Assembly: GCA_018812705.1 (NCBI GenBank)
Contig: JAHJCZ010000028.1
Location: 11,092 to 75,091, forward strand
Direction: 5' to 3'
DNA: 64,000 nt
Source of the DNA: Candidatus Omnitrophota bacterium
Lineage (GTDB): Bacteria; Omnitrophota; Gorgyraeia; Zapsychrales; Zapsychraceae
The notes under the pieces were generated by a model. The model saw only the letters and a list, made by a program, of their open reading frames with translations. It made no database searches and was not told where the DNA came from. Below, one piece after another: positions 1 through 45,357 of the stretch (positions within the stretch are counted from its first letter, which is position 1; each line of letters starts with the position of its first letter). Made by a program: the position numbers and the translations under genes.

Positions 1-1219
1 TTATAGGTATAGTAGTATTTCGTTCTATTAGTTTTGTACATACACTACCCAAGGTTTCAATGCCCAAAGAAAGTGGAGTAACGTCTAAAAGAAGAACTTC
101 TTTTGCCTCCCCTTTGATAATTCCAGACTGAACAGCTGCCCCTAAAGCAACGCATTCCATAGGATCAATTCCTCTTTCAATTTTTTGTCCAACTTCTTTC
201 TCGACGAACTCTTGAACGATAGGCATACGAGTTGGTCCTCCGACAAGAATGACCTTATCAACGTTTACATCTTCGCCTAGCTTTGCAGTAGCATCCTTCA
301 TAGCCTGAATGATCGGGCCACGACATCTATCAACAACTGAAGAAACCAAACTTTCTAATTTTGATCTCTCGATCTTTAAGGTCATATGTTTTGGGCCTGA
401 TGCATCAGCTGAAATAAAAGGTAAATTAATTTCAGTTTCTATCGTGCTTGATAGCTCAACCTTTGCTTTCTCCGCAGCTTCTCTTAATCTCTGAAAAGCC
501 ATCTTATCATTAGTAAGATCAATTCCTGACTCTTTCTTGAATTCCCCGACGATATATTCAATAAGAATATTATCCATATCCGTTCCACCAAGATAATTAT
601 CACCGCTTGTAGATAGCACCTCGAATGTTGCCGCCTTATGTTCATCATCCCATCCCATTTCAAGAATAGTAACATCCAGTGTTCCACCACCAAAATCAAA
701 GACCATTATTTTCTGCTCTTTACCAGCTTTATCTAAACCATAAGCTAAACAAGCAGCTGTCGGCTCATTGATAATTCTCAAAACTTTTAAACCGGCGATC
801 TCTCCAGCATCTTTTGTGGCTTGTCTCTGGTTATCATTAAAATAAGCTGGGACCGTAATAACAGCCTCATCAACTGTTTCACCCAAGTAGTTTTCAGCGT
901 CTGTTTTGATCTTTTGTAAAATAAAAGCGCTGATCTGCTGCGGAGTGAATTCTTTACCAAATACTTTGAATTTTTCATTTGTTCCCATTTTACGCTTTGC
1001 TGCATAAATTGTTCCTTCTGGATTGACAGGCGCTTGTCTTTTTGCAGGCTCTCCAACAAGCTTTTGTCCATCTTTTGTAAATGCAACAAATGATGGGAAT
1101 GCTTTTCCTGATGCAACCCCTGCTCCTTCAGCAGATGGTAAGATCATCGGTCTCCCGCCTTCCATTACCGATGCTGCTGAGTTTGATGTTCCCAAATCTA
1201 TTCCTATTGCTTTTGCCAT
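1..1219 (-). CDS. dnaK: Molecular chaperone DnaK (Hsp70), N-terminal about 406 aa; C-terminus lies beyond the window start
   Basis: Reverse translation from the ATG at about 1217-1219 gives [22 protein letters not shown]...[10 protein letters not shown]...DLGGGTFDV-type Hsp70 ATPase motifs. A strong AGGGAGGG RBS lies upstream. The gene follows grpE as in the hrcA-grpE-dnaK operon. The protein lacks the roughly 24-aa insert typical of proteobacterial DnaK. Confidence 0.9.
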
Positions 1220-1272
1220 TTTTCCCTCCCTTAAATATTCTTTTAAATCTTTTATTTTATTGTTAACAAAAT

Positions 1273-1944
1273 TTATTCAGCTATTTCTTCAGGACTGCTT
1301 TCAACATCAATTACATATTCTTTTACCTCTTCTGTTTCTTTTGTTTCTTTTTTCTTGGATAACTTAACTTTTGCAGTTCGAACAATTCTATCCTGTAAAG
1401 AATATCCTTTTTGAAATTCTTCCAAAACGATTCCTTCATCAACCTCATCAGTTTCTTCCTGCAATAAAGCCTCGTGACAATGAGGGTCAAAAGCTTTACC
1501 TTTTGCGTCAATTGGCTTTACACCATTCTTCTTAAGCATTTCATAGATCTGCTTCATTACCATTTCAACGCCTTTTTCAAAAGCATCATAATCCTGATGT
1601 TTAGCTTTAGCAGCAGCAATAGTTCTTTCAAGATTGTCTAAAATCTCTAAAAATTCTGCTATCAAGCCAACGTTTGCATATTTTGCAAACTCCATCTTGT
1701 CCCGTTCCATGCGCTTTCTTACATTCTCAAATTCAGCGTAAAGCCGCAGATGCTTATCTTTATATTCGGCGATTTCATTTTCAAGTCTTTTATACTCAGA
1801 TTCTTTGACTTTTATCATTATATCTTTTTTATGCTTAGCTTTAACATCGCTATCCATATTAGCTTTTTCTTCAAAAATTTTATCTTCTTCCATTTTTCCC
1901 TGATCAGCATCTTCTATATTGTCGTTTGTTATATTTTTTTCCAT
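1273..1944 (-). CDS. grpE: Nucleotide exchange factor GrpE. The track ORF runs to 1974 from a TTG; an ATG at about 1944 (MEKNITND...) is the more likely start.
   Basis: GrpE signature region [18 protein letters not shown]...FDPHCHEAL. The position between hrcA and dnaK also fits. Confidence 0.85.
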
Positions 1945-1957
1945 AATTAACTCTTTT

Positions 1958-2695
1958 TTAATAAATTTCTTCAATCAGCGATGAAAAATAATCGATTGCT
2001 GAAACAACCCTCTCATAGTTCATCCTAGTTGGCCCTAAAACTGCAATTCTACCGGAAGGCCCTTTTTTAGTTTTATATTCTGAGATCACTAAAGAACAAC
2101 TGTTCATTTGAGCACAAGCCATCTCATTGCCTATAAAAATATCTATCCTTTTTTCCAAGTGACGGTTAATGATCTCAAGCAATCTTTCTTTTTCATCTAA
2201 TGCTGCTAATATCTCTTCTATTTTCTGAATATCAGTGTAATCCAAATATCTAACAATATAACTTGTACCCCTACAAAATAGCTTCTTATCCCAACCATCA
2301 ACTGAGATCATGCTTGTATAATGTGTCGTTTCAGATATTGATTTGGACAAATTATCAAATAGCTCTTCTAATTCAAGTTTTTGCTTCTTATATTCTATCT
2401 TGATCCTTGTAGTTTCTTCTTCAAGAAGCTGTATCTCGTTCATTAAGTTATCAACATAATAGCGATAACCTTTTTGAGTAGGAATTCTTCCAGCCGATGT
2501 GTGAGGATGGGTTAAATAACCTTCATGCTCTAACTCCGCTAAAATATTTCTTATAGTCGCAGAACTCAACCCATACAGATGTTCTTTAACAATAAATGAT
2601 GAGCTTACTGGAGCCACAGTTGAAATATATCTGCCAACTGTAATAGCCAATATACTGTCTTTCCTTGCTTTAATCTCTTTTTGTTTTGTGTTCAT
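1958..2695 (-). CDS. hrcA: Heat-inducible transcriptional repressor HrcA (short form, 245 aa)
   Basis: N-terminal winged-helix region similar to HrcA (LSSATIRNILAELEHEGYLTHPHTSAGRIPTQKGYRYYVD). It is the first gene of the hrcA-grpE-dnaK operon and has a CIRCE element upstream. Confidence 0.8.
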   Translation of the reverse strand: MNTKQKEIKARKDSILAITVGRYISTVAPVSSSFIVKEHLYGLSSATIRNILAELEHEGYLTHPHTSAGRIPTQKGYRYYVDNLMNEIQLLEEETTRIKIEYKKQKLELEELFDNLSKSISETTHYTSMISVDGWDKKLFCRGTSYIVRYLDYTDIQKIEEILAALDEKERLLEIINRHLEKRIDIFIGNEMACAQMNSCSLVISEYKTKKGPSGRIAVLGPTRMNYERVVSAIDYFSSLIEEIY

Positions 2696-2757
2696 TTTTA
2701 AATTCAGTACAATTACTTATCCTAGTTAATAGGAAATACTTGCCATCCTGATAAATT

Positions 2758-2784
2758 TTAGCACTCTCGTAGGGTGAATGCTAA
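2758..2784. promoter_or_regulatory. CIRCE operator (HrcA binding site): TTAGCACTC-N9-GAATGCTAA, one mismatch to the consensus right arm GAGTGCTAA
   Basis: Inverted repeat read directly from the sequence, about 65 nt upstream of the hrcA start codon. This is the canonical position for the hrcA/dnaK operon operator. Confidence 0.7.
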
Positions 2785-2896
2785 TTCGGTATTATAACAA
2801 AAAAACTTTTGTTGTCAACTCCGATCTTTAGCATAAATTTAATTTAAAAAGAAAAGGAGTTTTTGGGAGATTTAATAGAGAATGCATCATAAAAAA

Positions 2897-3577
2897 CTAG
2901 CTTTCCTGCAGCTCTTTAGATTTACTTACCAAATATGCCAATTTACCTAAATATTGTTCTATGCTTGAAGGTTCGCTCTTAAGATAATAAATGTTGGGAT
3001 TAGATGCTGCTGATGATGCAAACTCTAAAACAGCGGCCTCTTTATCCATTTTCAACGATACGTAATAATACCCCATTGGGTCTTTATTAATAAATTCACG
3101 AAAAATGTTAGAAGCCTTTTGATCCTGAAGCAATTGTCCTGCTAATAAATAGTCATTAGAATAAACAGTGAAAGAAGCAAATTCCTTAGGAAGTTCAAGA
3201 TCTTTCGATACTTCTCCCTCTTGATCAATCACATCAGAGGCAATAAAGATGTCTGTTTTAACAGTTCTTCTTTTCTGCTTCTCCACAAATTCAAGAACAA
3301 GGCCATCTTCCTTCATTGCTTTTACATATGCTTTATAGAAACTTTCGTTAAGCCCTTTTTCTTCAATATCTTCATAAACATAACTATTCCCATCATAAGT
3401 AAAATCAATTTTGAAACTATTTCCACTACCTTCCATCAGCTCACACTTGCCTTCTAACTGCTTCTCCATTTCCTGAAGATACTTTTCTCTTGTCTTCCTC
3501 TTAATTGGAAACTTCCAAAAATACAAAAGAACTCCACCGATCACAACAAAAATCAAAGTAACATAAAAACTGCTCAT
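2897..3577 (-). CDS. Hypothetical membrane-anchored protein (one N-terminal TM helix, soluble C-terminal domain)
   Basis: 226-aa ORF with an ATG start and a strong GGGGAGG RBS. The hydrophobic N-terminus is LIFVVIGGVLLYFW. I recognise no conserved domain. Confidence 0.5.
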   Translation of the reverse strand: MSSFYVTLIFVVIGGVLLYFWKFPIKRKTREKYLQEMEKQLEGKCELMEGSGNSFKIDFTYDGNSYVYEDIEEKGLNESFYKAYVKAMKEDGLVLEFVEKQKRRTVKTDIFIASDVIDQEGEVSKDLELPKEFASFTVYSNDYLLAGQLLQDQKASNIFREFINKDPMGYYYVSLKMDKEAAVLEFASSAASNPNIYYLKSEPSSIEQYLGKLAYLVSKSKELQES

Positions 3578-3590
3578 AAAAATCCTCCCC

Positions 3591-4538
3591 TTATTCTTCT
3601 AACAATAATTCCCCATTTATATCATAGCTTATACTCATTGTCTTCTTGCCCTTATCATAGGTCTTTTCATTCTTAAGCTTGCCACCTCGATAATAAGTCT
3701 TGAACATACCATCTCTAACATCATCAACAAATTGACCCAATATCTTTAACTCGCCATTTTCAAAATACTCTTTAAACAAGCCTTGCCTTAATCCTCCGAC
3801 AACATTCACTTCTCTTGCAAGCTCTCCTGTCTTATAATATTCCTTGATCACAGCATTCTTAATCTTACCTTCTTCAATAATGCTCTCACTTTTAAGCTCA
3901 CCAGTACTATAATATTCTTTTATAGTTCCTGAAGGAACTCCATTGTATGCCTCAAATGCTTTAACAACTCTTCCCTGTTCATCAAATTCCCTGATCAGCC
4001 CTGTCTGAATTCCATTCTTAAAAACCGTTTGTCTCAACAAATAACCATCTTTGGAGTACTCTTTCATTACCCCATCTTCAACGCCCATTTTATATTGCAT
4101 TTCATAATTATATTTCCCGTCCTTATAGAACTCTTTGAAAGTTCCATCACGCTTGCCCTCAAAAAAATACCCCACGCTTTTTGGCGTTCCATCTTCATAA
4201 AAAGATTTTGATGTTCCGTGCAACTTTCCCTTTTTATAATTTACTTCTAATTCAAGAACCCCGTTCGGATAATACCCCCTAGCTTTCTCCTCAAGGTAAT
4301 CATCAACATAAAGGCCCTCCCCCTTTAGCTTGCCGCTCTTATAGAAAGTATTAAAATATCCGTTTAGCTTAGAATCTTTATAGGTTGCTAGACGTTTAAC
4401 CTCTCCTGTGTCAAAGAACTCCTTAAAAACACCATCCTCCATTACTGCAAATGAAAACGTGGAACAAAAAATAAACAATATTGTTAAAATGCCCCTAACA
4501 ATCTTTTTTATAATATTAATGTTCATTTTGAAAACCAT
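3591..4538 (-). CDS. Secreted MORN-variant (YwqK-like) repeat protein
   Basis: Signal-peptide-like N-terminus followed by about 12 tandem roughly 23-aa repeats of the form G-x-x-KEYY-x-x-G-x-LK-x-E-x-x-Y-x-x-GKK-x-G, typical of MORN-variant repeat proteins. Confidence 0.6.
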   Translation of the reverse strand: MVFKMNINIIKKIVRGILTILFIFCSTFSFAVMEDGVFKEFFDTGEVKRLATYKDSKLNGYFNTFYKSGKLKGEGLYVDDYLEEKARGYYPNGVLELEVNYKKGKLHGTSKSFYEDGTPKSVGYFFEGKRDGTFKEFYKDGKYNYEMQYKMGVEDGVMKEYSKDGYLLRQTVFKNGIQTGLIREFDEQGRVVKAFEAYNGVPSGTIKEYYSTGELKSESIIEEGKIKNAVIKEYYKTGELAREVNVVGGLRQGLFKEYFENGELKILGQFVDDVRDGMFKTYYRGGKLKNEKTYDKGKKTMSISYDINGELLLEE

Positions 4539-4601
4539 TATAGCATCACATATTCAAAAAAATGCAAATTTTATTTCTACAAACTAAGATCCCTTTAACC
4601 T

Positions 4602-5711
4602 TCATAGCTTCAAAAAGATGTCAAATAAGGCATCAGCTATCATCCTATGGACCAAAACACTAGCATGAGGATCATGTTCATTTACAATACGCTTTTTCAA
4701 TGGAAGGTCCTTAACTAGCTCACCTACATCAACAACAGGAATTTTGTAAAACTGAAAATAGCTTTTAACAATATCTATATATTTCTTACTACCCTCAATG
4801 TCGTTTAAAAAAGGGACAACAATAACAATTAAATCGATCTTATGGTCCTTCGCAAATAATCTCAAAAGAGATAATTCATTCAAATGATCTTTTAAGACTT
4901 CACCATCTTTATAACAATCATATAAAGACGCAGAATATTTATTTTGCTCTGCATGTGGGAATTCCCAATAAATATAATCAAGGAAATATGAATTCTTAAC
5001 AAAATATCTCAAGAAAGGACTCATGTCCGAATACAATGGTCTTTTGTAAACAGATTTCCTTTCCCCAGAACAAACTTCCTCAATATCGTTCATAAAATAC
5101 TGTAATATTATTCCTTTAGGTTTTGTTGGAAAATTCAATAACATTGCTAATTCCGTACTACTATTAGCACCATTATTTCCAAAATTAAACACCGAAAAAC
5201 TCTCCGGCAATTTTTTCGCAATAATATCAGAAAATCTATCTTTTGGGTCCTTGATACCGTACCCAGCAGTAAACGAATCCCCTAAAACAAATATCGCTTG
5301 TTTATTCTTAAATCTGTCTTCAGAGTATGGGATATCTCTTGCCCCGGACTGATTTATGGGTTTCCAATAATAATCACTCCATCTCTGCGCTGCTAAACTA
5401 GCTCCTGACCTATGGCTTCTTGGAATAAAAAGGAAAATAGATTCAAAAAGCAGGAAGAAAAACAACAAAGAAAAAATTAAAGACAAAAAGTTCTTTAAAT
5501 GAACATTCTTCAATTGACCCTTAATAACCGCACTATAAAAAATTGCCAACAAAACAAAGATATTCACGAATATCAAGACTAGCTTAATAACTATTTTCAT
5601 TTGCCAAGATACTTGGATACATTGAGCTGTTGTTGTTGCCAACAAAAACCATAACAATAAAAGCTGTGTTGCGAATAAAAATAATAATTTAATTATATTC
5701 TTTTTCAACAT
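4602..5711 (-). CDS. Membrane-anchored SGNH/GDSL-family hydrolase (3-4 N-terminal TM helices plus an esterase/acyltransferase-like domain)
   Basis: GDS block FVLGDSFTAGYG after a hydrophobic N-terminal region. The C-terminal region is compatible with an SGNH fold, with a DxxH-like motif near the end (EHDPHASV). Confidence 0.6.
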   Translation of the reverse strand: MLKKNIIKLLFLFATQLLLLWFLLATTTAQCIQVSWQMKIVIKLVLIFVNIFVLLAIFYSAVIKGQLKNVHLKNFLSLIFSLLFFFLLFESIFLFIPRSHRSGASLAAQRWSDYYWKPINQSGARDIPYSEDRFKNKQAIFVLGDSFTAGYGIKDPKDRFSDIIAKKLPESFSVFNFGNNGANSSTELAMLLNFPTKPKGIILQYFMNDIEEVCSGERKSVYKRPLYSDMSPFLRYFVKNSYFLDYIYWEFPHAEQNKYSASLYDCYKDGEVLKDHLNELSLLRLFAKDHKIDLIVIVVPFLNDIEGSKKYIDIVKSYFQFYKIPVVDVGELVKDLPLKKRIVNEHDPHASVLVHRMIADALFDIFLKL

Positions 5712-5738
5712 AACCTATGGCTCTCTTTAGGCGAATAT

Positions 5739-7019
5739 CTATTTCAAATAAAACTTGCCAACAAGGCTTGAGGGCATTGCTGCTCTAATATTTATCCTGT
5801 CATTATAATACTTAATTGAATAAACTTGACCTTCATCATGGGCAATATTCACTAGGTCCATTCTATTAATAGGCACATCAACATCAATTTCAACAAACAA
5901 GGCTGCTAGTTCTTTTCTGATAACTTCAAGCAATTCATCGATATTTTCTTCATTCCTCGCAGATATACAAACAGCCCTCTGATAATTCCCTTTTAAAGAA
6001 TCTAACCCTTCCAGATCGGCAAGTTTATCGATCTTATTTAAAACAACTATTGTCGGCTTATTCTTAGACTCCAGTTCTTCCAGAACATTTTCCACTGCCT
6101 CATAGCGATGTCTGAAATTCTCATGGCTCACGTCAACCACGTGCAACAAAAGATCTGCCTCTTTAACCTCTTCTAATGTTGCCTTAAAAGACTCGATCAA
6201 ATGATGAGGCAACTCATGCATAAAGCCAACAGTATCAGATAAAATAACTTTTTGATTGTTTGTTAGCACTAATTGCCTGCTTAAAGAATCAAGCGTTGTA
6301 AACAATCCATCTCGCGTGATCTGTTGAGAGCCCGTCATGACATTCAGCAGCGTTGACTTCCCTGCATTTGTATAACCAACTAATGAAATAGCCGGCGATC
6401 CTTTATCTTTTCGTTTTTTTCTTTTTAGAGACCTGTCTGAAACAACGCTCATCAGGTTCTTTTTTAACCTATTGATCCTTTCAGAAATACGCCTTTTATC
6501 AACCTCAAGCTTTGTTTCTCCTGGGCCTAAAGTTCCTATGCCACCTCCCAATCTTGAAAGCTCAACACCCTTACCAGTTAATCTTGGCAACAAATATTCT
6601 AATTGCGCCAACTCAACCTGCATTTTTCCTTCTTTACTCGTAGCTCTTCGTGCAAAAATATCAAGTATTAACTGTGTACGGTCTATCGTTTTAATCTTTA
6701 TCTCATTCTCAAGATTTCTCTTCTGGCTTCCTTTTAGATCATCACTGAAAATAACGGTGTCAACATCTTTCACTCCGCATAATCCTACAATTTCTTCAAC
6801 TTTACCCTCGCCAATAAGATAACGTGCCGACGGGCCATCCAACTTACATATCATACTGTCAACAACTACTCCTCCGCAAGCAACCACCAAGTCATTCATC
6901 TCTTCTAAAGTTTCTTCAACAGACCAGCAGTCCAATCCCTTTCTGACATTCTTATAGTCAACTATTACAAGGAACACTTTTTCTTTTTGCTGATCTTTCA
7001 CAAATTCACTGTTTTTCAT
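5739..7019 (-). CDS. hflX: GTPase HflX
   Basis: HflX N-terminal domain plus G-domain motifs GYTNAGKSTLLN (G1) and DTVGF (G3), with NKID (G4). Confidence 0.85.
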   Translation of the reverse strand: MKNSEFVKDQQKEKVFLVIVDYKNVRKGLDCWSVEETLEEMNDLVVACGGVVVDSMICKLDGPSARYLIGEGKVEEIVGLCGVKDVDTVIFSDDLKGSQKRNLENEIKIKTIDRTQLILDIFARRATSKEGKMQVELAQLEYLLPRLTGKGVELSRLGGGIGTLGPGETKLEVDKRRISERINRLKKNLMSVVSDRSLKRKKRKDKGSPAISLVGYTNAGKSTLLNVMTGSQQITRDGLFTTLDSLSRQLVLTNNQKVILSDTVGFMHELPHHLIESFKATLEEVKEADLLLHVVDVSHENFRHRYEAVENVLEELESKNKPTIVVLNKIDKLADLEGLDSLKGNYQRAVCISARNEENIDELLEVIRKELAALFVEIDVDVPINRMDLVNIAHDEGQVYSIKYYNDRINIRAAMPSSLVGKFYLK

Positions 7020-7029
7020 TTATCTAGTA

Positions 7030-7806
7030 TTAGAACCTTTCTTCCGTTAATGTTATATAATCCTTGAATTCAAGTTTTCCATTAATTTCTTGATTAACAA
7101 TTGCGATTCTTTTTGAAGGATTCGGATGTGTTTTCCAGTAATTGATCTGCTTTAAAGGAGCTTTTTCATGATCCTTTTTAATTTTATTTAAAAATACCAC
7201 CATCTCTCTTGGATCATATCCGGCTTTTTTCATATACTTAACGCTCAACTTATCTGCTAAAAACTCGTCATCCTGAGAATAAGCAACAAACAATGAATTA
7301 ATAGCAAGATTTACTCCTCCAGATACTTCCCCAGCCGTTTGAACTGCCAACAACTGAAGCATCAAAGCGCCATAAACATTTTGCAGTCTTTTAATACTGT
7401 GTTTTGCAGTAATATGTCCTACCTCATGAGCAATAACACCAGCTAACTGATCATCATTATCAACACTGTCATATAAACCTTTGAAAATATATACATAGCC
7501 GCCTGGTAAACTTATTGCATTAAGATCTTCACCTTCAAGAACTTTAATGAAGTATTTCAGGTTCTTCCTGTCACAAACGCCAACGATTCTATCAAGAATA
7601 CCCTCAACTCTTTCATTAACATCTACATCTTCAATAACATCGTATTCATTTTCAATTTTAATAGCAACAGAATCCCCTATACGGATCTCTTTATCCGTAT
7701 CATAAAGAATGACTTCCTGTTTTTTTGTAACAACATTATACTCTGTCACACAACCCAACAGGCAAATCAATACTAATAAATTAAGAATATTGAAAATATA
7801 ACGCAT
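7030..7806 (-). CDS. M48-family zinc metalloprotease lipoprotein (BepA/YcaL-like)
   Basis: Lipobox-like LLGC in the signal peptide. HEXXH zinc motif HEVGHITAKH. The overall M48 architecture is present. Confidence 0.75.
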   Translation of the reverse strand: MRYIFNILNLLVLICLLGCVTEYNVVTKKQEVILYDTDKEIRIGDSVAIKIENEYDVIEDVDVNERVEGILDRIVGVCDRKNLKYFIKVLEGEDLNAISLPGGYVYIFKGLYDSVDNDDQLAGVIAHEVGHITAKHSIKRLQNVYGALMLQLLAVQTAGEVSGGVNLAINSLFVAYSQDDEFLADKLSVKYMKKAGYDPREMVVFLNKIKKDHEKAPLKQINYWKTHPNPSKRIAIVNQEINGKLEFKDYITLTEERF

Positions 7807-7822
7807 TTCGAATTAATTGCTT

Positions 7823-8401
7823 TTACAGAATGGAAACACCGACTTTTTTAAGCATCTTTGCCAGCTTGGCTATCGGCAAACCAATGACATTCCAATAACA
7901 ACCTTCTATCCGACGAATAAAAATACTACCCCAGCCTTCAATATCAAACCCTCCGGCCTTATCTAAAGGAGAAACTTTCACATGATAACGATCGATCTCA
8001 GAATCAGAAAGTGAGTTCATATAGATCTTCGTCTTTTCATAATCAACAATTTCCTTACCAGTATCAACATCAATAACAGCAACACCTGTATAAACCCAAT
8101 GTGGCTTTGAAAAAAGTGTTTTCAAATTATTCTTTGCTTCCTTCAAATTTCGCGGTTTACCAATTATTTTTTTATTGCCGATATATACAACTGAATCAGC
8201 GCCAATAACAATACCATGCTTCTCTTTAGCAGCAACACTTCTGGCTTTGACCAAGGCATTTTCCTTAACCAAAACAGAACACGTGGTTTTGATCTTTTGA
8301 CTTTCAGGGGAATGACTGAGACTGACTCTAAAACTAATACCCAACATCGTTAAGAGTTTTTTTCTTTGAGCTGAACCAGATGCAAGAATTATTTTTTTCA
8401 T
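7823..8401 (-). CDS. maf: Maf-like nucleoside triphosphate pyrophosphatase (septum formation protein Maf)
   Basis: N-terminal ILASGSAQRKKLL and the overall Maf family pattern. Length is 192 aa. Confidence 0.8.
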   Translation of the reverse strand: MKKIILASGSAQRKKLLTMLGISFRVSLSHSPESQKIKTTCSVLVKENALVKARSVAAKEKHGIVIGADSVVYIGNKKIIGKPRNLKEAKNNLKTLFSKPHWVYTGVAVIDVDTGKEIVDYEKTKIYMNSLSDSEIDRYHVKVSPLDKAGGFDIEGWGSIFIRRIEGCYWNVIGLPIAKLAKMLKKVGVSIL

Positions 8402-14803: not shown

Positions 14804-15988
14804 TCACAAATACTTTCGAGCCAGGCGATTCCCTAAGCTACAAACAATTTCATAATTAATTGTTTTTGCATATCCTGCTAATTCCTCTGCAGAAATTGTT
14901 TCTTTCCCCTGTTTTCCTAAGATCACAACAGGCATGCCTATCCTGGGTTTCTTTACTGAAGACACATCAACAATGATCTGGTCCATAGTCACCCTTCCAA
15001 CAACCTTACACCGTTCTCCCCCGATCAAAACAGAAGCCTGGTTTGAGAACAATCGAAAATAACCATCATTATACCCAATTGGAATTACAGCAACTGTCAT
15101 GTCATTTTTTGAAAAGAACGTCCTTCCATAGCTGAGACTTCTTCCTTTTTCAATATCTTTAAGGAAAATCACTTGTGATCTAATGCTCATTGCCGGCTTA
15201 AGATCAACTTTGCCCTTAAGGCTCTTATCGGGATAAAGGCCATAAAGCATAAGGCCCGGCCTTACAAGGTTCAATACATGCGTTTTATATCCTGCCAATC
15301 CCATACTATTGGCCGCATGAATATATGGAATGATCAATCCACTTTTATCTAGTCGAATAACAAGATCATAAAGGCATTCTATTTGATTTCTTGTAAAGTT
15401 TTGATCAGTATCTGCAGCTGGGAAATGAGTGAAAATCCCCATGATCCTTAATCTGTTCAGTTTCATTAATTCCCCTACAAACTCAAAGGCTTCCTTATGC
15501 CAAACGCCTAGACGACCCATGCCTGTATCAACTTTCACGTGAATATCCACGATCTTTCTTTTTTTGACCGCGTATTCATTTAACGCATTTGCTAATTCTA
15601 ATGTGCAAACTGTCGGCATCAAATTATTATCTATGATCTTCTTGGCGCAAGATGCTAACGTCGTTTCAAACAACAGTATCGGTTTTTCTATACCTATCTT
15701 TCTTAAAGCTATACCTTCATTAATATCAGAAACTCCAAAAAAATTCACACCTTCTTTTTCCAGCAATAATGCAACTTGCTCAAATCCGTGGCCATATGCA
15801 TCTGCTTTTATAACAGCGAGAATTTCAGAGGGCTTTGGTTTTGTTTTTTTGGTACCTGTTCTTGACGGGAAAATGAATTTGTTTGCTGCAGCCAGTTTAT
15901 TAAGCTGTTTTATATTATGCTTAATTGCTTTTAAATCAATTTCAGCCCAAGTTAGAACATCACCGTTATTTTGCTTTTCCCTTATCAT
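14804..15988 (-). CDS. alr: Alanine racemase
   Basis: PLP-lysine motif AVIKADAYGHG and the overall Alr architecture. It carries a roughly 20-aa insertion before the PLP site. Confidence 0.85.
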   Translation of the reverse strand: MIREKQNNGDVLTWAEIDLKAIKHNIKQLNKLAAANKFIFPSRTGTKKTKPKPSEILAVIKADAYGHGFEQVALLLEKEGVNFFGVSDINEGIALRKIGIEKPILLFETTLASCAKKIIDNNLMPTVCTLELANALNEYAVKKRKIVDIHVKVDTGMGRLGVWHKEAFEFVGELMKLNRLRIMGIFTHFPAADTDQNFTRNQIECLYDLVIRLDKSGLIIPYIHAANSMGLAGYKTHVLNLVRPGLMLYGLYPDKSLKGKVDLKPAMSIRSQVIFLKDIEKGRSLSYGRTFFSKNDMTVAVIPIGYNDGYFRLFSNQASVLIGGERCKVVGRVTMDQIIVDVSSVKKPRIGMPVVILGKQGKETISAEELAGYAKTINYEIVCSLGNRLARKYL

Positions 15989-16699
15989 TGTTTCCTTCTA
16001 ACCTGACAATCTTCAGGATATAGATACACTGGTAAAATTTTCTCTACTTTATCAAACTTCTTTTCCCTAATAGACTTGTAAGCTAGAGCTGCTAAGTTTT
16101 TAGCTTTAGGATACCAAAGTTCTTCTTTCTCTTCATATAAAAATGTTGCCTGACTTTTTATTGATCTTGATCGTAAAATTTCTTCTTTTACTATTTCATC
16201 TTTATAAACATTAAGAGCATCACCAATAAAAACAACATCACCACTAATCTTCTGTAAAATATCTTGAATACTAGTTAACATATAATCTGTTTTTTTTTTT
16301 GATATTTAAGCCTTCTTTATCATAAACGCACCCAAAAACCATATTTCTTTTTGCATCGCAGATCGTACATACCTGCGCATTTTTTCTTTTTATATTTAAA
16401 GCTAAAACATCTAAGCTCGGGATCCCTACAATGGGCTTGTTTGTAGCATAAGCCAAACCCTTTACAGTTGAAACACCAACTCTCAAACCAGTAAAGGACC
16501 CTGGCCCTAATCCAACTGCAAAACCATCAATTTGAGATAGTGTAACACCTGCTTTTTTTAACACTTGCTCAATAGCTGGAATAATTGTTGAGCTAAGGAC
16601 TTTTTTTGACTTTAAATTCTTGGAACTAAGGACTTTCTCATTCTCTGAAACTGCTAAACTAAAATGTTTTGTAGACGTATCTATAGATAATATTCGCAT
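15985..16699 (-). pseudogene. tsaB: tRNA threonylcarbamoyladenosine biosynthesis protein TsaB, split by a frameshift inside an A11 homopolymer (plus-strand T-run at about 16290-16300)
   Basis: ORF 16271..16699 is a TsaB/YeaZ N-terminal half (MRILSIDTSTKHFSLAV...GPGSFTGLRVG). ORF 15985..16281 is the C-terminal half. Deleting one A gives a continuous protein of about 236 aa. Confidence 0.65.
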
Positions 16700-17149: not shown

Positions 17150-18055
17150 CTAAAAATGAACAAATCCCTTTTTCATTTTTATTTCCCTTTCTTCTCCCTC
17201 AACATCAACAGATAATAATCCAATAGATTCCCTTACAATTTCACCTATATGGTAAAATATATATTTTTTTTGTGATAAGATCTTTTTTGCTTCTTTAGGT
17301 GAAACTGTAAACAACAATTCAAAATCCTCGCCGTCATAATAAGCCTTCTCAATGTTTGCATCTTTTCTTAGCGGCACATTCTTTTCATACAATATAGCTC
17401 CAACTTTACTTCCCTTTAAAATATGATCAAGATCAGGGACTAATCCATCAGAAATATCTATCATTGAAGATATCTTATATTTATTTACCAAATACTGCGA
17501 CTCGGCGACTCGGGGCATAAACCTTAAATGCCAACCACTATTTAAAGAATTTCCTAATCGACCTGTAACGAAGACCTTATCACCTACTTTTGCACCATCT
17601 CTATAAACGGCCTTATCAGCATTTACCTCTCCGGTAAGCGCAACGTTAATAACATTATTTTCGCTCCTTACCGTATCTCCTCCAACAATATTCACACCGA
17701 ACCTTTTCGCAGCTGTTTTCATGCCCTGATGTATTTTCAATATAAAGTCTAATTTTATTGAAGGGGCTACCCCAAAAGAAATAACCGCATGCTTTGGTAT
17801 TCCTCCCATAGCCGCAATATCACTGACGCTGCAGCATACTGCCTTGTAACCTATTGCTTTTGGCGATGAATCCTTCGTAAAATGCACTCCCTCAACCAGC
17901 ATGTCAGTTGTAAGCAATAATCTCTTTTTGGACGACATCTTAACTACAGCTGTATCGTCACCAATACCTTTAATAACGTCTGACGAACAAGAAGTTTTTG
18001 ATCTTAATATATCTATCAAGCCAAATTCGCCAATACTAGCTATTTTTTTTTTCAT
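17150..18055 (-). CDS. thiL: Thiamine-monophosphate kinase
   Basis: AIR-synthase-related fold with GEFGLIDIL...GIGDDTAVV...VEGVHF motifs typical of ThiL. The coding sequence begins ATG followed by an A10 run. Confidence 0.75.
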   Translation of the reverse strand: MKKKIASIGEFGLIDILRSKTSCSSDVIKGIGDDTAVVKMSSKKRLLLTTDMLVEGVHFTKDSSPKAIGYKAVCCSVSDIAAMGGIPKHAVISFGVAPSIKLDFILKIHQGMKTAAKRFGVNIVGGDTVRSENNVINVALTGEVNADKAVYRDGAKVGDKVFVTGRLGNSLNSGWHLRFMPRVAESQYLVNKYKISSMIDISDGLVPDLDHILKGSKVGAILYEKNVPLRKDANIEKAYYDGEDFELLFTVSPKEAKKILSQKKYIFYHIGEIVRESIGLLSVDVEGEEREIKMKKGFVHF

Positions 18056-18066
18056 GATTTAAATTT

Positions 18067-18124
18067 GGGGACACGTACTTATTTTATATTGTTTGTTTTT
18101 TTTATGAAATAGGTACGTGTCCCC
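18067..18124. repeat. Long perfect palindrome: 12-bp stem GGGGACACGTAC / GTACGTGTCCCC with a 34-nt AT-rich loop, followed by a T-rich tail with CCCCTATTTT duplicated
   Basis: Read directly in the thiL-mtnA intergenic region. It shares the GTCCCCTATT motif with the palindrome at 45282-45337. Confidence 0.5.
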
Positions 18125-18139
18125 TATTTTTCCCCTATT

Positions 18140-19177
18140 TTATTTAAACATTGCTTTAATGTTCTTTGTATTCACAGGGCTGATAATACCATGTTCCGTA
18201 ATAATAGCAGTTATAAGCTCATGATCAGTTACATCAAAAGCAGGATTATAAACTTTTACATTCTTCGGTGCCGTAATCACGCCTCCAAAACTCTTGACCT
18301 CAGAACTATCTCTTTCTTCAATAGGGATCTCTTTGCCGTTATCTATCGTCATATCAAATGTTGAATATGGAGCAGCAATATAAAAAGGTATCTTATGATA
18401 TTTTGCCAATACAGCTAAACTGTAAGTTCCTATCTTATTCGCTGTGTCTCCATTTGAGGCAATGCGGTCAGCGCCGGCAATGATCAGATCAATTTTCTTC
18501 TGCTTCATTAAAGTAGCAGCCATATTATCGCAGATCAAGGTCGTATCAATTTTTTCTTTTAACAGCTCCCAAGTTGTAAGACGTGCACCTTGAAGAAGAG
18601 GCCTTGTTTCACAAGAATAAACTTTAAATTTCTTTCCTTTTTCTTTTGCTGCATACATTACACCTAAAGCCGTTCCATAATCAGCCGTCGCAAGGGCCCC
18701 TGCATTACAGACAGTCAAGACCGATTGGCCTGATCTTATGAATTTTTCTCCGTTGGCCCCTATCTTTCGGCACATTAATTTATCTTCATTAAAAATTTCC
18801 ATTGCCTCTATGTGAAGCTGCTTTATCGCCTCTCCCACATTAAGCTCAAGGCAGGTTGCCGCCGCGAATTTCATTCTCTCTAAACTATTGAAAAGATTTA
18901 CAGCAGTTGGCCGTGAAGTCCCGATATATTTGCAAACTTTATAAACATGTTTGACTAATTGCTTAACCGTTTTTCCTTTAAATTCCTTTAGCCCTAACAA
19001 AACACCAAAACCGGCAGCAACCCCTAAAGCAGGCGCCCCTCTAACGCTCAACCTTTTTATGCAATCCCAAAGCGTCTTAACATCAGAACAAGTAATATAC
19101 TCTAGGCTGCCCGGAAGTTTTGTTTGATCAATTAATCGAACATTTCCTTTTGTATATGTAATAGTCGGAACTGGCAT
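18140..19177 (-). CDS. mtnA: S-methyl-5-thioribose-1-phosphate isomerase (eIF-2B alpha/beta/delta-like family)
   Basis: VRLIDQTKLPGSLEYITCSDVKTLWDCIKRLSVRGAPALGVAAGFG matches the MtnA N-terminal signature. The length is 345 aa. Confidence 0.75.
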   Translation of the reverse strand: MPVPTITYTKGNVRLIDQTKLPGSLEYITCSDVKTLWDCIKRLSVRGAPALGVAAGFGVLLGLKEFKGKTVKQLVKHVYKVCKYIGTSRPTAVNLFNSLERMKFAAATCLELNVGEAIKQLHIEAMEIFNEDKLMCRKIGANGEKFIRSGQSVLTVCNAGALATADYGTALGVMYAAKEKGKKFKVYSCETRPLLQGARLTTWELLKEKIDTTLICDNMAATLMKQKKIDLIIAGADRIASNGDTANKIGTYSLAVLAKYHKIPFYIAAPYSTFDMTIDNGKEIPIEERDSSEVKSFGGVITAPKNVKVYNPAFDVTDHELITAIITEHGIISPVNTKNIKAMFK

Positions 19178-42895: not shown

Positions 42896-44230
42896 TTATT
42901 GATTCAAAAATGATGAAGGCGCAAAAGAGAACATCATATCCGCTTCAGCAACAACTTCACCATTCACTTTAACAAAACCTCTAACTTGAGCAACTCTCGT
43001 CCTATCTTTTATGACCTCAACATCAATTATCAATTGGTCACCAGGACTGACGACCTTTCTGAATTTTACTTTATCAATTGCCATAAAAAAAGCTAGCCTG
43101 CCATGTCGGTCTTCATCAGTCAACATCATAACACCCGCAGTTTGAGCCATTGCTTCCACCATCAACACTCCCGGCATAACAGGATTCGTCGGAAAATGAC
43201 CCTGAAAATAATTCTCATTTATTGTAACATTCTTCAGCCCAATTGCTTTTTTTCCTTTTTCAACTTCAACAACTCTATCAATAAGCAAGAACGGATACCT
43301 GTGAGGGAGTATTTGCATAATACCGTTTATATCGATCTCCCTTCTTCCTTCTTCATTAAAAACTGGAACGACCGTTTTCTTTTTACTTTTTTCTTTTTGT
43401 CTATATATTTTTTTTAGAAGTTCTAAATTTAATTTATGACCACTTCTAACAGCAAAAACATGGCCTTTGATCGGCATACCGAACAAATAAAGATCCCCGA
43501 TAAAATCTAAAATCTTATGACGTGCGAACTCATCCTTAAAAAGCACTTCATTTTCAAGGACACCATCCTTGCCAACAACAAGCGTATTCCTATAACTTGC
43601 ACCCTTTCCAAGCCCTCTTGCTTTTAGCTCAGCCGCTTCCGACTCAACACAAAAGGTCCTGCAAGGCGCGATCTCATTTTCAAAAGATTCAGAAGTGACG
43701 TTAATGCTAAAAAACTGTGATCTAAGATATGGATGATCATAATCCAAAGTATAAGAGATCTTGAAATCTTGAGATGGAACGATATAAATTGATGCATCTT
43801 TACTTTGAACACCTATCGGCTCCTTAATTTCATAAAATTCTTGATCTGCGTCTTGTTCAACAACGCCAGCCTTTTTAAACGCAGATAAAATCTCTTTCGC
43901 ACTGCCACACATCCCAGGGATCTCTTCAGCATTAACTTCAACAATAAGATTACTTATATTCAATCCACATAGAACACTCATCAAATGCTCTACAGTCCTA
44001 ACTTGCACATCTTTTGTCCCCAAGGAAGTACAACGAGATCCCTGAGGGTCTGAAAAAACATTTTCTGGAGATACTTTCATGACAGGTTTATCAGGCAAAT
44101 CCGTCCTAATAAAAACAATACCAGCATTTTCATCAGCTGGTTTAAATATTACATCAACGGAAACCCCAGTATGAAGACCTACGCCCGATATTGAAAACTC
44201 CTGTTTAATTGTTCTTTGCTTTACTGCCAT
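42896..44230 (-). CDS. lpxC/fabZ: Bifunctional UDP-3-O-acyl-GlcNAc deacetylase / 3-hydroxyacyl-ACP dehydratase (LpxC-FabZ fusion)
   Basis: The N-terminal roughly 280 aa are LpxC-like (IKQEFSISGVGLHTG...HKLNLELL). The C-terminal roughly 150 aa are a FabZ hot-dog domain (LPHRYPFLLIDRV...GHFP..PVMPGVL). Confidence 0.85.
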   Translation of the reverse strand: MAVKQRTIKQEFSISGVGLHTGVSVDVIFKPADENAGIVFIRTDLPDKPVMKVSPENVFSDPQGSRCTSLGTKDVQVRTVEHLMSVLCGLNISNLIVEVNAEEIPGMCGSAKEILSAFKKAGVVEQDADQEFYEIKEPIGVQSKDASIYIVPSQDFKISYTLDYDHPYLRSQFFSINVTSESFENEIAPCRTFCVESEAAELKARGLGKGASYRNTLVVGKDGVLENEVLFKDEFARHKILDFIGDLYLFGMPIKGHVFAVRSGHKLNLELLKKIYRQKEKSKKKTVVPVFNEEGRREIDINGIMQILPHRYPFLLIDRVVEVEKGKKAIGLKNVTINENYFQGHFPTNPVMPGVLMVEAMAQTAGVMMLTDEDRHGRLAFFMAIDKVKFRKVVSPGDQLIIDVEVIKDRTRVAQVRGFVKVNGEVVAEADMMFSFAPSSFLNQ

Positions 44231-45260
44231 TATCTATCTGTTCCTTAAGCTCCTTAACTTGTTTTTTTAATTCATTTATCTCTTTGACATATGAAGGGAG
44301 TCTTTGAGCACATGCATTAATTTTCATTTGATCTGCATATGCCCTGGCAGGAGATCCCAGTGCTTTTGTAAAAGGCGGTATGGATTTCATAACAGCGCTT
44401 TGCGCAGTTACAATTGCTCCTTCACCGATTGTCAAATGCCCGACGACTCCCACCTGACCTGCCAATATTGCATTCTTCCCGATATTAACACTTCCTGAAA
44501 TGCCAACTTGCGATATTATAATACAATCCTCACCTATTGAAACATTATGGGCCACCTGTACTAAATTATCAATTTTGGTACCTCGCCCGATAAAAGTTTT
44601 ATCGAACCTTGCCCTATCAATAGTAACATTTGCCCCGATCTCTACATCATCCTCAATAACAACAATGCCTATCTGAGGTATCTTTTTATGTTTTCCATCA
44701 ACCTGCTCATACCCAAAACCATCAGACCCAATAACCGTTCCACTGTGAATAATTACGTTATCACCTATTTTTGAACGGTCCATAATAACTACATTGGGAT
44801 AAAAAATACAATTCTTACCTATTACTGTTTTGTGCCCAATAAAAACCCCGCCATAAATAGCACAGCCTTCTCCAACTGAAACGCCATCTTCTATAATAAC
44901 ATTTGGACCGATCGAGACATTATTGCCAATTGAAGCATCCTCAGAAATTACTGCTGACGCATGTATGCCCTTAAATTTTGACTTGCCTGACGAAGCGAAT
45001 AAAGAGATCACTTCTGTGAAAGCAATAGAGGGACTATCGGTGAGAATTACTGTTTTCCCAGGAATCGACATATCCCTGGATATGATTATTGCTGAAGCTT
45101 TAGTTTCTTTAGCAATTGGAGCATATTTAGAATTTGAAACAAAGGTCAACTCTCCTGCTTTAGCTTCCTGGAGACCATTAACCCCTGTTATCACTAATGT
45201 CTTATCACCAACAACCTCGCCCCCGATCAATTCTGCTATCTCGGCTAAGGTCTTTTGCAT
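44205..45260 (-). CDS. lpxD: UDP-3-O-(3-hydroxyacyl)glucosamine N-acyltransferase
   Basis: LpxD N-terminal domain plus extended hexapeptide repeats. It lies upstream of lpxC/fabZ. Confidence 0.85.
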   Translation of the reverse strand: MQKTLAEIAELIGGEVVGDKTLVITGVNGLQEAKAGELTFVSNSKYAPIAKETKASAIIISRDMSIPGKTVILTDSPSIAFTEVISLFASSGKSKFKGIHASAVISEDASIGNNVSIGPNVIIEDGVSVGEGCAIYGGVFIGHKTVIGKNCIFYPNVVIMDRSKIGDNVIIHSGTVIGSDGFGYEQVDGKHKKIPQIGIVVIEDDVEIGANVTIDRARFDKTFIGRGTKIDNLVQVAHNVSIGEDCIIISQVGISGSVNIGKNAILAGQVGVVGHLTIGEGAIVTAQSAVMKSIPPFTKALGSPARAYADQMKINACAQRLPSYVKEINELKKQVKELKEQIDNGSKAKNN

Positions 45261-45281
45261 ATTATTTCCTATATTTTAATA

Positions 45282-45337: not shown

Positions 45338-45357
45338 CCTATTCTTACGAAAACAAA

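Follow-up and report, generated by a model that had tools for sequence, protein, structure and literature searches.

Two long palindromes in Omnitrophota operon spacers, probable doublets of TIRtron repeats without the transposase gene

The stretch of DNA analysed here (the window, 64,000 nt) belongs to the metagenome-assembled genome of an uncultured Omnitrophota bacterium. Two spacers between minus-strand genes carry long palindromes: element I1 lies between mtnA and thiL, and element I2 between a skp-like gene and lpxD (Table 1). The gene names and the common strand are those of the preliminary description of this DNA. The segments 18067-18124 of I1 and 45283-45338 of I2 are the longest two inverted repeats of the window.

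Table 1. Coordinates of the two palindromic elements, their parts and the flanking genes in the window
Feature	Position	Strand	Remark
thiL	17150-18055	-	flanks I1
Element I1, whole	18061-18141	.	two arms with their loop, plus the duplicated terminal 11-mer
I1 left arm, AAATTTGGGGACACGTACTTATTTTATA	18061-18088	+	repeat subtype GGGGACAC..TAC..TTA(T/A)TT; GGGGWSAS motif at 18067-18074
I1 loop/spacer, TTGTTTGTTTTTTT	18089-18102	.	14 nt between the arms
I1 right arm, reverse complement, AAAATAGGGGACACGTACCTATTTCATA	18103-18130	-	
Tandem TCCCCTATTTT x2 ('terminal stutter')	18120-18141	+	perfect; copies at 18120-18130 and 18131-18141
mtnA	18140-19177	-	flanks I1
lpxD	44205-45260	-	flanks I2
I2 left arm, AATAAGGGACAGTGCCCTATTTT	45278-45300	+	subtype GGGACAG-NNN-CCTATTT
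I2 loop/spacer, CTCTATATTTTCTTTGAATA	45301-45320	.	between the I2 arms
I2 right arm, reverse complement, AATAGGGGACAGAGCCCTATTTT	45321-45343	-	contains GGGGACAG at 45332-45339
skp-like gene	45358-45876	-	flanks I2

The 84-nt mtnA-thiL spacer (18056-18139) is almost wholly taken up by I1. In its perfect core GGGGACACGTAC (18067-18078) pairs with GTACGTGTCCCC (18113-18124) across an A/T-rich interval of 34 nt, which confirms the 12-bp stem reported previously; when G-U pairs and mismatches are allowed, the arms reach 28 nt and are 86% complementary. The tail that had been noticed beyond the stem is, more exactly, the perfect tandem listed in Table 1: the right arm has its outer 11 nt doubled, and the second copy enters the mtnA stop codon (18140-18142). 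The right arm alone folds into a 7-bp mini-hairpin, AAATAGG/CCTATTT (DNA fold, -3.5 kcal/mol, z -3.7). The sequence GGGGACAC, which conforms to the motif GGGGWSAS, occurs in I1 on the plus strand and again at 18117-18124 on the minus strand. A promoter-like TTCATA-16-TAAAAT in the I1 loop was set aside, as such matches occur at chance level in the consensus promoter scan.

The second palindrome, placed near 45282-45337 in the preliminary description, was found again with arms of 23 nt each that are 91% complementary and differ from each other by one uncompensated A/T. Its right arm alone also forms a 7-bp mini-hairpin (DNA fold, -4.3 kcal/mol, z -3.9). The GGGGWSAS motif is present in I2 as GGGGACAG on the minus strand; the other I2 arm, the fourth of the four, reads AGGGACAG.

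Both elements have the form GGGACA-N44-TGTCCC with a span of 56 nt, and these are the only two matches to GGGACA-N{30,60}-TGTCCC in the window, where 0.02 would be expected; the shared GGGACA stem pointed out earlier thus holds. The arm pattern AAATAGGNNNNTGTCCCCTATT, with up to three mismatches, was found four times (0.06 expected), the four sites being all four arms of I1 and I2. The bare 8-mer CCCCTATT shows no enrichment (3 found, 1.8 expected), so that the signal resides in the entire arm. GGGGWSAS has 7 matches across the window against 4.7 expected; the surplus matches fall inside genes and therefore give no evidence for solo repeats in the window. The RNA fold energies, a check proposed in the preliminary description, set both elements apart from shuffled sequences on the plus strand (I1, -34 kcal/mol, z -9.9; I2, -29.6 kcal/mol, z -7.1), and the minus-strand values are -25.3 and -36.5 kcal/mol, respectively. 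As DNA, I1 and I2 fold with -17.7 and -17.6 kcal/mol (z about -8). Each element thus consists of two inverted repeats that fold to one hairpin, as REPINs do, and has terminal inverted repeats (TIRs) and no ORF, as MITEs do. Direct repeats bracketing the elements, sought as a sign of target-site duplication, were not seen, the flanks being inverted instead; target duplications are not expected from Y1 transposases. In an Rfam search of the whole window at the gathering threshold only a tRNA passed, and at E<=1 the two element regions gave only sub-threshold, generic-hairpin matches to miRNA precursors.

The elements belong to a family that reaches far beyond this genome. A search of species-representative genomes with the pattern GGGACA-N6-TATT-N{10,40}-AATAG-N5-TGTCCC returned at least 120 stretches, against about 8 expected by chance (a rough estimate from uniform composition), and the core common to these loci is GGGACAG-NNN-CCTATTT ... 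AAATAGG-N'N'N'-CTGTCCC. At least nine phyla are represented: Planctomycetota, Omnitrophota, Elusimicrobia, Sumerlaeota, Eisenbacteria, Thermodesulfobacteriota, Pseudomonadota, Bacillota and Armatimonadota. (Seven Alphaproteobacteria matches of the form GGGACAAATTGCTATTATAG... were excluded, being an orthologous feature of another kind.) Several genomes hold multiple dimers, among them Pseudoduganella lurida (at least five) and several Planctomycetota and Deltaproteobacteria MAGs; with two in the window and several per genome elsewhere, the extra copies are dispersed as dimers, in the manner described for TIRtrons. The view of the palindromes as a REP-like intergenic family was right as to kind, while 'small' does not describe a family of this extent.

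Among the matches listed, bases that the search pattern left free are conserved as well (G7 in 86%, C11 in 95% and C12 in 99%). Positions 8-10 are variable (29 distinct hexamers among the matches listed), yet the two arms agree there in 107 of 118 copies. The outer end is also conserved among these matches, with A at -4, -5 and -6 in 94, 81 and 63% of arms, respectively; the consensus preceding GGGACA is AAA(A/T)T(A/G), hence a foot of the form (A/T)T(A/G)G. In other genomes, 22 of 237 ends carry an extra copy of the end that corresponds to the I1 stutter, where 0.2 would be expected. The genes on either side of family members are co-directional in 47 cases, convergent in 18 and divergent in 9.

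A link to Y1 (HUH) transposase genes came from a family locus (L067) at which two inverted copies bracket an ORF of 226 aa whose product matches Pfam Y1_Tnp (59.7 bits) and NCBIfam REP_Tyr_transpos (69.7 bits). At two further loci (L070 and L095) a homologue of this ORF is about 60 nt or less away from a doublet, and at a third (L023) the distance is about 700 nt. For a reciprocal test the L067 protein was used to fetch 80 metagenomic loci, 70 of which had enough flank to test. An inverted repeat joined the two flanks in 61 of the 70, and GGG[AT][CG]A[CG] stood within the repeat in at least 46. The TIR sequences AAATAGGGGACAGCGCCCTATTTC (L146) and GGGGACACCATACTTAATTATT (L156, L192) match the I2 and I1 arms, respectively; the I1 arm subtype flanks Y1 transposase genes in L156, L161, L163, L164, L188, L203 and L208. 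The order within a transposase unit is TIR, promoter, gene and reverse-complement TIR: 23 of 65 loci have an exact TTGAC 16-22 nt past the upstream anchor (background 3%), and the stop codon lies within the downstream TIR in 39 of 60. Doublets and transposase units have the same outer/inner polarity. Full doublets accompany few of the 80 metagenomic transposase genes, a single TIR per side being the usual state.

The TIR subtype follows the protein clade, identity being 59% within the I1 type versus 44% between types. Proteins of the I1 type carry NHVH or NHIH, LWQ and YVELNP or YIELNP, those of the I2 type YIERNP or YVENNP, and lengths are 219-226 aa. The earlier treatment of both palindromes as one family accordingly needs qualification: a superfamily motif is common to them, and the subtypes differ (GGGGACAC-GTAC-TTATT in one, GGGACAG-NGC-CCTATTT in the other), each with a transposase clade of its own. 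TnpAY1 subclass 2.1 (Quentin et al. 2018, BMC Genomics 19:475; PMC6006769), which corresponds to RAYT group 1 (Bertels et al. 2017; PMC5581495), is defined by NHVH or NH[YF]H, W[EQ], YIELNP or Y[IV]HLNP and a length of about 238 aa (PMC6006769, Table 1). Judged by inspection of motifs against that table, the associated proteins appear to fit this subclass, with NH[VI]H, WQ, Y[IV]ELNP or ERNP and about 220 aa. Subclass 2.1 is also described as having a C-terminal helix-turn-helix-like domain (Bac_DnaA_C, HTH_23 or HTH_28; PMC6006769). For the proteins tested here, hmmscan against Pfam at E<=1 with two representatives gave Y1_Tnp only, and no HTH-like domain was detected by Pfam profile at the C terminus, where the associated proteins share a conserved block, TGRP.GS..F...LE.

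Homologues of the associated transposases (best 120) show a wide and patchy spread with high identity across phyla, a distribution consistent with horizontal spread. With tblastn and three queries we found no Y1 transposase gene in the window, or in the fetched contigs of the same species and of close relatives, and among homologues of an I1-type transposase the best 120 include no Omnitrophota name; the copies may thus be relics.

At orthologous sites the elements are present in some lineages and absent from others. Three relatives, whose ThiL proteins are 78, 77 and 74% identical to that of the window, have the same gene order with mtnA-thiL spacers of 26, 24 and 29 nt, against 84 nt here. 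These spacers are not alignable, so that the insertion borders of I1 can be given only approximately. One 'empty' mtnA-thiL site (L128) reads AAATAGGTACATGCCCC, which resembles one I1 arm, so that the pattern of presence and absence may partly be one of loss rather than gain. For I2, relatives found by a search for LpxD homologues include one with an orthologous copy (L211) and one with none (L210). Uncompensated changes have occurred in both lineages that bear I2, which argues against selection on pairing.

We consider it likely that both palindromes are gene-less 'TIRtrons'. On this reading each is a MITE/REPIN-like, non-autonomous doublet that joins the left TIR of such a unit to the right one, the two elements belonging to different repeat subtypes. 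The data show a sequence family spread over many phyla, arms identical to the repeats beside these transposase genes, and presence or absence at orthologous sites. A TIRtron is a compact unit in which a RAYT-like (IS200-type) Y1/HUH tyrosine transposase gene (TIRYT) stands between repeats of about 25 nt, each of which starts with (A)AATAG|GGGACA(G/C) and ends in ...C(C/T)TATTT. With the gene gone and only 14-20 nt left between the TIRs, the repeats pair into a long hairpin; as I1 and I2 carry distinct TIR subtypes, they descend from, or depend on, two transposase lineages. By analogy, a cognate Y1 transposase acting in trans would bind the repeat on single-stranded DNA, cut and rejoin it, and this reaction would put doublets into intergenic DNA without target duplication. 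No experiments on any TIRYT were found in the literature searched, and binding, cleavage and the single-strand mechanism are thus extrapolated from IS608 and the E. coli RAYT; we infer mobility on single-stranded DNA from IS200/IS605 TnpA and the same E. coli RAYT. The suggestion that the palindromes are recognition sites for a DNA-binding protein would stand only if that protein were the element's own transposase.

The same features could be read as RNA elements selected by the host, i.e. intrinsic terminators (perhaps bidirectional) or hairpins that stabilise mRNA or its 3' end, with the likeness in sequence secondary. As RNA, either strand gives a very stable hairpin, both sites lie between co-directional genes, the family as a whole is found chiefly between co-directional or convergent gene pairs and less often between divergent ones, the plus-strand stem is followed by a T-rich flank, and E. 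coli REPs are known to work in this way (PMC3733652). Against this, a terminator scan (G+C-rich stem, loop of 3-8 nt, at least 5 T within 8 nt) returned 0 sites in both regions on both strands; the loops of the elements are 14-20 nt. On the minus, coding, strand the sequence after the stems reads AAAUUUAAAUC and UUAUUAAAAU, with no U run. Terminators, moreover, do not keep a sequence of 20 nt over nine phyla, nor do they flank a transposase gene; the elements are missing in syntenic relatives, and I2 gathers uncompensated changes. We regard this explanation as improbable; exaptation following insertion may have occurred. Nor does the T-rich tail count as evidence of an antisense terminator: the tail is the conserved outer end of the repeat, mirrored at the opposite end.

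Canonical REP/REPIN elements of the kind that E. coli or Pseudomonas has, served by a RAYT of group 2 or 3, would likewise be extragenic inverted doublets that give a hairpin. The associated protein does match the NCBIfam model for REP-associated tyrosine transposases, the foot ATAG is one base off GTAG, and the GGG/CCC stem bottom recalls published subclass 2.4 REPs such as GTAGGGACAGAC.... However, GTAG and GTGG are absent from I1 and I2 on either strand, and among the matches listed the base that precedes T[AG]G in the family is A or T. The NCBIfam score of L067 falls below the 80-bit cutoff, and NH[VI]H, LWQ, Y[IV]E[LR]NP and 219-226 aa suit subclass 2.1, not 2.2 or 2.5. This assignment is thus very unlikely; the elements, REP-like in kind as the preliminary description has it, lack the GT[AG]G foot of canonical REPs and agree with the published GGGGWSAS repeats of TIRYTs.

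Also very unlikely are operators of a host transcription factor, with four AAATAGG/CCTATTT half-sites in alternating orientation. Palindromic symmetry and the repetition of the half-site would suit such a role, as would the short distance, 11 and 22 nt, that separates the two sites from the gene start downstream. The downstream genes thiL and lpxD are, however, functionally unrelated, the sites are missing in syntenic relatives, the same sequence stands beside transposase genes in many phyla, and bases that vary between species stay matched between arms, which an operator does not need. Finally, that these are two coincidental hairpins, as might be suspected from just two copies in 64 kb and a short motif (CCCCTATT) without enrichment, is refuted by the joint-pattern expectation of 0.02, fold z values of -7 to -10, at least 120 related copies elsewhere and the repeats that flank transposase genes, and its probability is negligible.

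Among the closest known systems is the TIRtron (Di Nocera, De Gregorio & Rocco 2013, BMC Genomics 14:522; PMC3733652). In that paper, TIRs with GGGGWSAS, here GGGGACAC and GGGGACAG, flank RAYT-like Y1 (TIRYT) genes at a fairly constant distance and are dispersed in moderate numbers as singles, dimers or clusters. The genomes treated there are from cultured organisms, whereas the present copies come from an uncultured Omnitrophota MAG and at least nine phyla; the inner CCTATTT, the overlap of TIRs with promoter and stop codon, the two co-evolving subtypes and the stutter are absent from its text and may in part appear in its figures. In PMC6006769, TIRYT is equated with subclass 2.1, with the flanking consensus GGGG[AT][CG]A[CG]. 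The 16-mers flanking subclass 2.1 genes are reported to be moderately repeated, about 12 per replicon. Quentin et al. (PMC6006769) saw no REP-like sequences beside these genes, whereas here flanking repeats are obvious and free doublets occur. Of the repeat sequences published in the supplements of the two papers, none in PMC3733652 is relevant, and in PMC6006769 the sole candidates are GTAG REPs of subclass 2.4, whose stem is GGGACAG.

With the REPIN-RAYT system (Bertels & Rainey 2011, PLoS Genet 7:e1002132) the elements share the inverted pair with a short spacer and one long hairpin, the non-coding, extragenic location, the co-variation of the repeat with its own single-strand Y1 transposase and a transposase gene that is itself flanked by repeats. 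They differ in lacking the GTAG foot, in the transposase group, in their A/T-rich stems, in a far lower abundance (2 in 64 kb) and in a transposase inheritance that appears horizontal rather than strictly vertical. The long 'double-foot' REPs of TnpAY1 subclass 2.4 (Quentin et al. 2018) similarly form a long hairpin with a 5' tetranucleotide foot, its 3' complement and a GGG/CCC stem bottom, and published examples start with GTAGGGACAGAC, near ATAGGGGACAGAC here; the present elements have (A/T)T(A/G)G in place of a GT[AG]G foot, and the protein motifs better fit 2.1. MITEs such as Correia/NEMIS, RUP and Nezha are also short, non-coding, TIR-bounded derivatives by gene loss that lie next to genes and are co-transcribed with them. 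Here, in contrast, no target-site duplication is visible, the length is only 70-80 nt, and the transposase would be an HUH single-strand enzyme, not a DDE enzyme.

As gene-less TIRtron doublets, I1 and I2 represent an already described but little-studied type of miniature mobile DNA, here in two operon spacers of an Omnitrophota bacterium. Both copies sit inside tightly packed arrays of co-directional minus-strand genes and are probably co-transcribed with their neighbours; at the mtnA-thiL and skp-lpxD junctions the transcript would then gain a stable hairpin (-25 to -36 kcal/mol as modelled), with a possible effect on mRNA decay or read-through. We nevertheless regard the two elements primarily as inserted selfish or relic DNA. 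The two largest palindromes are thereby explained as remnants of mobile elements, not regulatory sites, and knowing this guards against their annotation as terminators or small RNAs.

Of the RAYT groups, group 1 / TIRYT has the widest distribution, and to our knowledge its substrate is without experimental definition. The consensus obtained here (arm, polarity, lineage-specific triplet and the overlap with promoter and stop codon) supplies oligonucleotides for binding and cleavage assays and a simple pattern for spotting such elements in metagenomes. More tentatively, the missing 'REPIN equivalent' of this largest RAYT group (group 1 / subclass 2.1) might be found in the GGGACAG...CCTATTT doublets, although we lean against so broad a reading. 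One conserved repeat architecture, with an (A/T)T(A/G)G foot, a GGGAC core and a lineage-specific triplet, would then serve thousands of closely related transposases that move horizontally across at least nine phyla. The inner repeat end would double as the -35 box upstream and as a Lys-stop codon downstream, and the chemistry of cleavage and joining would have left its footprint in the duplicated ends of 10-11 nt (22/237). Where the genome is compact, as in this Omnitrophota, the host may also have adopted some copies as operon-internal RNA hairpins.

The palindromes in the mtnA–thiL spacer (I1) and in the skp–lpxD spacer (I2) are the two longest inverted repeats of the 64-kb window. Both lie among co-directional minus-strand genes, as the preliminary description stated. 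I1 is between thiL and mtnA, I2 between lpxD and a skp-like gene that follows bamA. The 12-bp stem and tail described earlier for I1 agree with the sequence, and the second TCCCCTATTTT unit of the tail overlaps the mtnA stop codon. The span GGGACA-N44-TGTCCC is identical in I1 and I2 and was found twice in the window versus 0.02 expected; a single 22-nt arm pattern fits all four arms (4 found versus 0.06 expected in the window). Predicted RNA folding, one of the checks proposed earlier, gives hairpins on either strand that are far more stable than shuffled sequence (z −7 to −10), and for DNA folding z is about −8.

Positions of the palindrome parts and examples of directly repeated ends
Feature	Position	Remark
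I1 perfect stem	18067–18078 with 18113–18124	GGGGACACGTAC pairs with GTACGTGTCCCC; read from the sequence
I1 extended arms	18061–18088 and 18103–18130	14 nt between; a few imperfect pairs allowed
I1 tail	18120–18141	perfect tandem TCCCCTATTTT ×2
I2 arms	45278–45300 and 45321–45343	
Terminal stutter examples	window 18120–18141; loci L007, L013, L044, L048, L065, L071, L074, L099, L113, L118	

The host is an Omnitrophota MAG of 35% G+C. Across window 1–64000 the minus strand holds almost every genuine-looking ORF of at least 90 aa, an extreme strand asymmetry, and GC skew is steady at about −0.27. A TsaD-family (PF00814) gene beside tsaE is split into ORFs of 142 and 98 aa (window 15985–16699, minus strand; same-gene locus L001 2813–3527). 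In other same-species contigs and in relatives the gene is undivided (237 aa; loci compared, L002 5828–6541 and L004 2813–3526); the split reflects either a frameshift or an error of assembly.

A pattern built from positions common to I1 and I2, GGGACA-N6-TATT-N{10,40}-AATAG-N5-TGTCCC, was scanned against one genome per species. At least 120 stretches match versus about eight by chance (a rough estimate), so that the ‘small family of REP-like palindromes’ proposed earlier is real and REP-like in kind, but not small. Such doublets (two inverted arms without a gene between) occur, among the matches listed, in Planctomycetota, Omnitrophota, Elusimicrobia, Sumerlaeota, Eisenbacteria, Thermodesulfobacteriota, Alpha-, Beta- and Gammaproteobacteria, Bacillota and Armatimonadota, with several per genome in some species, e.g. 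the cultured Pseudoduganella lurida. From the listed matches we compiled 118 copies, including both window copies and leaving out seven alphaproteobacterial matches. The consensus is AAA(A/T)T(A/G) followed directly by GGGACA-G-N-N-(A/C)-C-C-TATT-T. Bases left free in the search pattern are conserved (G7 86%, C11 95%, C12 99%); positions 8–10 vary by genome (29 hexamers), yet agree between the arms in 107 of the 118 copies, and arm symmetry extends 5–6 nt outward beyond GGGACA. By a crude ORF call these listed doublets are mostly intergenic, with 47 co-directional, 18 convergent and 9 divergent gene pairs.

The seven matches left out (L010, L037, L042, L098, L111, L123, L124) are clearly something else and not family members. 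They show another conserved hairpin, GGGACAAATTGCTATTATAG-N-CTATAATAGC-N-TGTCCC between GAGGA and TCCTC, which recurs in several Alphaproteobacteria (Rhodovulum, Roseomonas and others) at an apparently orthologous position; it resembles a structured RNA or a regulatory site that has no connection with transposase repeats. The same crude ORF call places some doublets deep within very long ORFs (L086 5117–5173, in an ORF spanning 3–7988; L049 3592–3641; L062 591–632; L082 1607–1659); by analogy with reported REPs, they may have inserted in frame into genes.

At 22 of 237 ends among the matches listed, the outermost ~10 nt of the arm are directly repeated just outside the element (0.2 ends expected from shuffled flanks); at some ends the tandem array has at least three units. 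This ‘terminal stutter’ may reflect cutting and joining chemistry, or preferred insertion beside end-like sequence.

The family is linked to Y1 transposase genes. In L067, a Phycisphaerae contig, a 226-aa ORF stands between two oppositely oriented copies, with only about 5–50 nt on each side; it is a Y1 (HUH) transposase (Pfam Y1_Tnp, 59.7 bits; NCBIfam ‘REP-associated tyrosine transposase’, 69.7 bits, just under the 80-bit cutoff). The distance between a homologue and a copy is at most about 60 nt in loci L070 and L095, and about 700 nt in L023. In the reciprocal test, an alignment of three of the transposases was used to fetch 80 metagenomic loci, 70 of them with sufficient flank; in 61 of the 70 an inverted repeat links the upstream and downstream flanks, and at least 46 of these 61 contain GGG[AT][CG]A[CG]. 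Gene-flanking repeats AAATAGGGGACAGCGCCCTATTTC (L146) and AGGGACAGCGCCCTATTTTT (L160) match the I2 arms, while the I1 arm GGGGACACGTACTTATTTTATATTG is matched by GGGGACACCATACTTAATTATT (L156, L192) and GGGGACACCATACATATTTTATCTTG (L208), with repeats closely related to GGGGACACCATACTTAATTATT in L161 and L203. Window arms and gene-flanking repeats have a common polarity, GGGAC outside and TATTT inside. Protein identity is 59% within I1-type loci and 44% between I1-type and I2-type loci; repeat subtype thus tracks protein clade, and the window doublets belong to two different transposase lineages. The motif earlier seen as common to both palindromes is indeed shared, but as a superfamily signature on arms of different subtypes.

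Upstream of the transposase gene of L197 the joining is reversed, with inner ends outside and GGGAC ends facing (AATTAAGTATTGTGTCCCC...GGGGACACAATACTTAATTA), so that doublets occur with their repeats in either relative orientation. The homologue beside the doublet of L095 (1–700) appears broken: a single frame holds only residues about 56–164, with three tandem CAAGGAGAG units ahead of them, and the N-terminal part is 5 kb off, at the other contig end. A search with an I1-type transposase gave >7,900 proteins at E ≤ 1e-30; among the matches listed, those of Thermodesulfovibrionales, Bipolaricaulota, Methylomirabilis, Nitrospiria, Deltaproteobacteria and Ignavibacteriales are 64–77% identical. 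Many matches are on ~1-kb contigs, as expected for DNA that breaks assemblies by being repeated or moving horizontally.

The autonomous unit is very compact, with a median of 55 nt from the start of the upstream repeat to the ATG. An exact TTGAC occurs 16–22 nt past the GGGAC of the upstream repeat in 23 of 65 loci (background 3%), placing a −35 box against its inner end. The downstream repeat contains the transposase stop codon in 39 of 60 loci; the inner CCTATTT reads AAA-TAG on the opposite strand. This overlap with promoter and stop codon accounts for the conserved inner TATTT/AAATAG part, and also suggests that the transposase is autoregulated through binding its own repeat.

I1 is identical in same-species contigs. 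In three relatives (ThiL 78, 77 and 74% identical; metG-mtnA-thiL-tsaE order kept) the mtnA–thiL spacer is 26, 24 and 29 nt long and has no palindrome, versus 84 nt in the window. I2 is at the same place in locus L211 (LpxD 88% identical), each lineage with its own uncompensated changes, and is absent from the 61-nt A/T-rich spacer of L210 (LpxD 86% identical). Hence gain or loss of the elements keeps pace with the divergence of species; I2 would be the older of the two if loci L129 and L211 represent one organism. The mtnA–thiL spacer of L128 (5680–5700) begins AAATAGGTACATGCCCC, which agrees with one I1 arm (AAATAGGTACGTGTCCCC) at 15 of 18 positions, the mtnA stop codon standing in place of the repeat's TAG. 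Judged from this similarity, the spacer may hold a solo-arm remnant rather than being truly empty, or it may be a target site similar to the end of the repeat.

By analogy, the cognate Y1 transposase would mobilise doublets in trans on single-stranded DNA. Mobilisation of REPINs by RAYTs has been proposed, and Y1 single-strand transposition was demonstrated for IS608 TnpA and cleavage for the E. coli RAYT (PMC6006769). No Y1 transposase gene was found in the 64-kb window or the relatives' contigs, and the I1 and I2 copies may therefore be relics. Both are probably part of the transcripts of the minus-strand gene arrays, with predicted mRNA hairpins of −25 and −36 kcal/mol, respectively. A reading as terminators or other host elements fares poorly: in a terminator scan neither looks like one, their coding-strand 3′ flanks lack a U run, relatives manage without these elements, and I2 shows decay. 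They may serve the host, but the evidence gives no support for this.

Di Nocera et al. (2013; PMC3733652) named RAYT-like genes with long terminal inverted repeats ‘TIRYT’, within ‘TIRtrons’; the repeats have a common motif GGGGWSAS, which the window arms fit (GGGGACAC, GGGGACAG), and form moderately abundant families of singles, dimers or clusters. TIRYT corresponds to TnpAY1 subclass 2.1 and to Bertels' RAYT group 1, with flanking consensus GGGG[AT][CG]A[CG]; REP-like sequences were stated as not found for this subclass (Quentin et al. 2018; PMC6006769), and 16-mers flanking group 1 genes occur about 12 times genome-wide (Bertels et al. 2017; PMC5581495). Motifs of the doublet-associated proteins fit subclass 2.1; its C-terminal HTH-like domain was not detected in them by Pfam. 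Unlike canonical REPs, the window elements lack the defining GT[AG]G foot; in their (A/T)T(A/G)G foot and GGG stem bottom they are similar to subclass 2.4 REPs of the ‘double-foot’ type. The literature searched reports no TIRYT experiments.

I1 and I2 thus belong to a class that is known but has received little study, here in a phylum without cultures. The wide spread of the doublets, the lineage-specific triplet, the promoter and stop codon overlap and the duplicated end go beyond the literature consulted, and with the last three details the substrate of the largest RAYT group can be put to the test.
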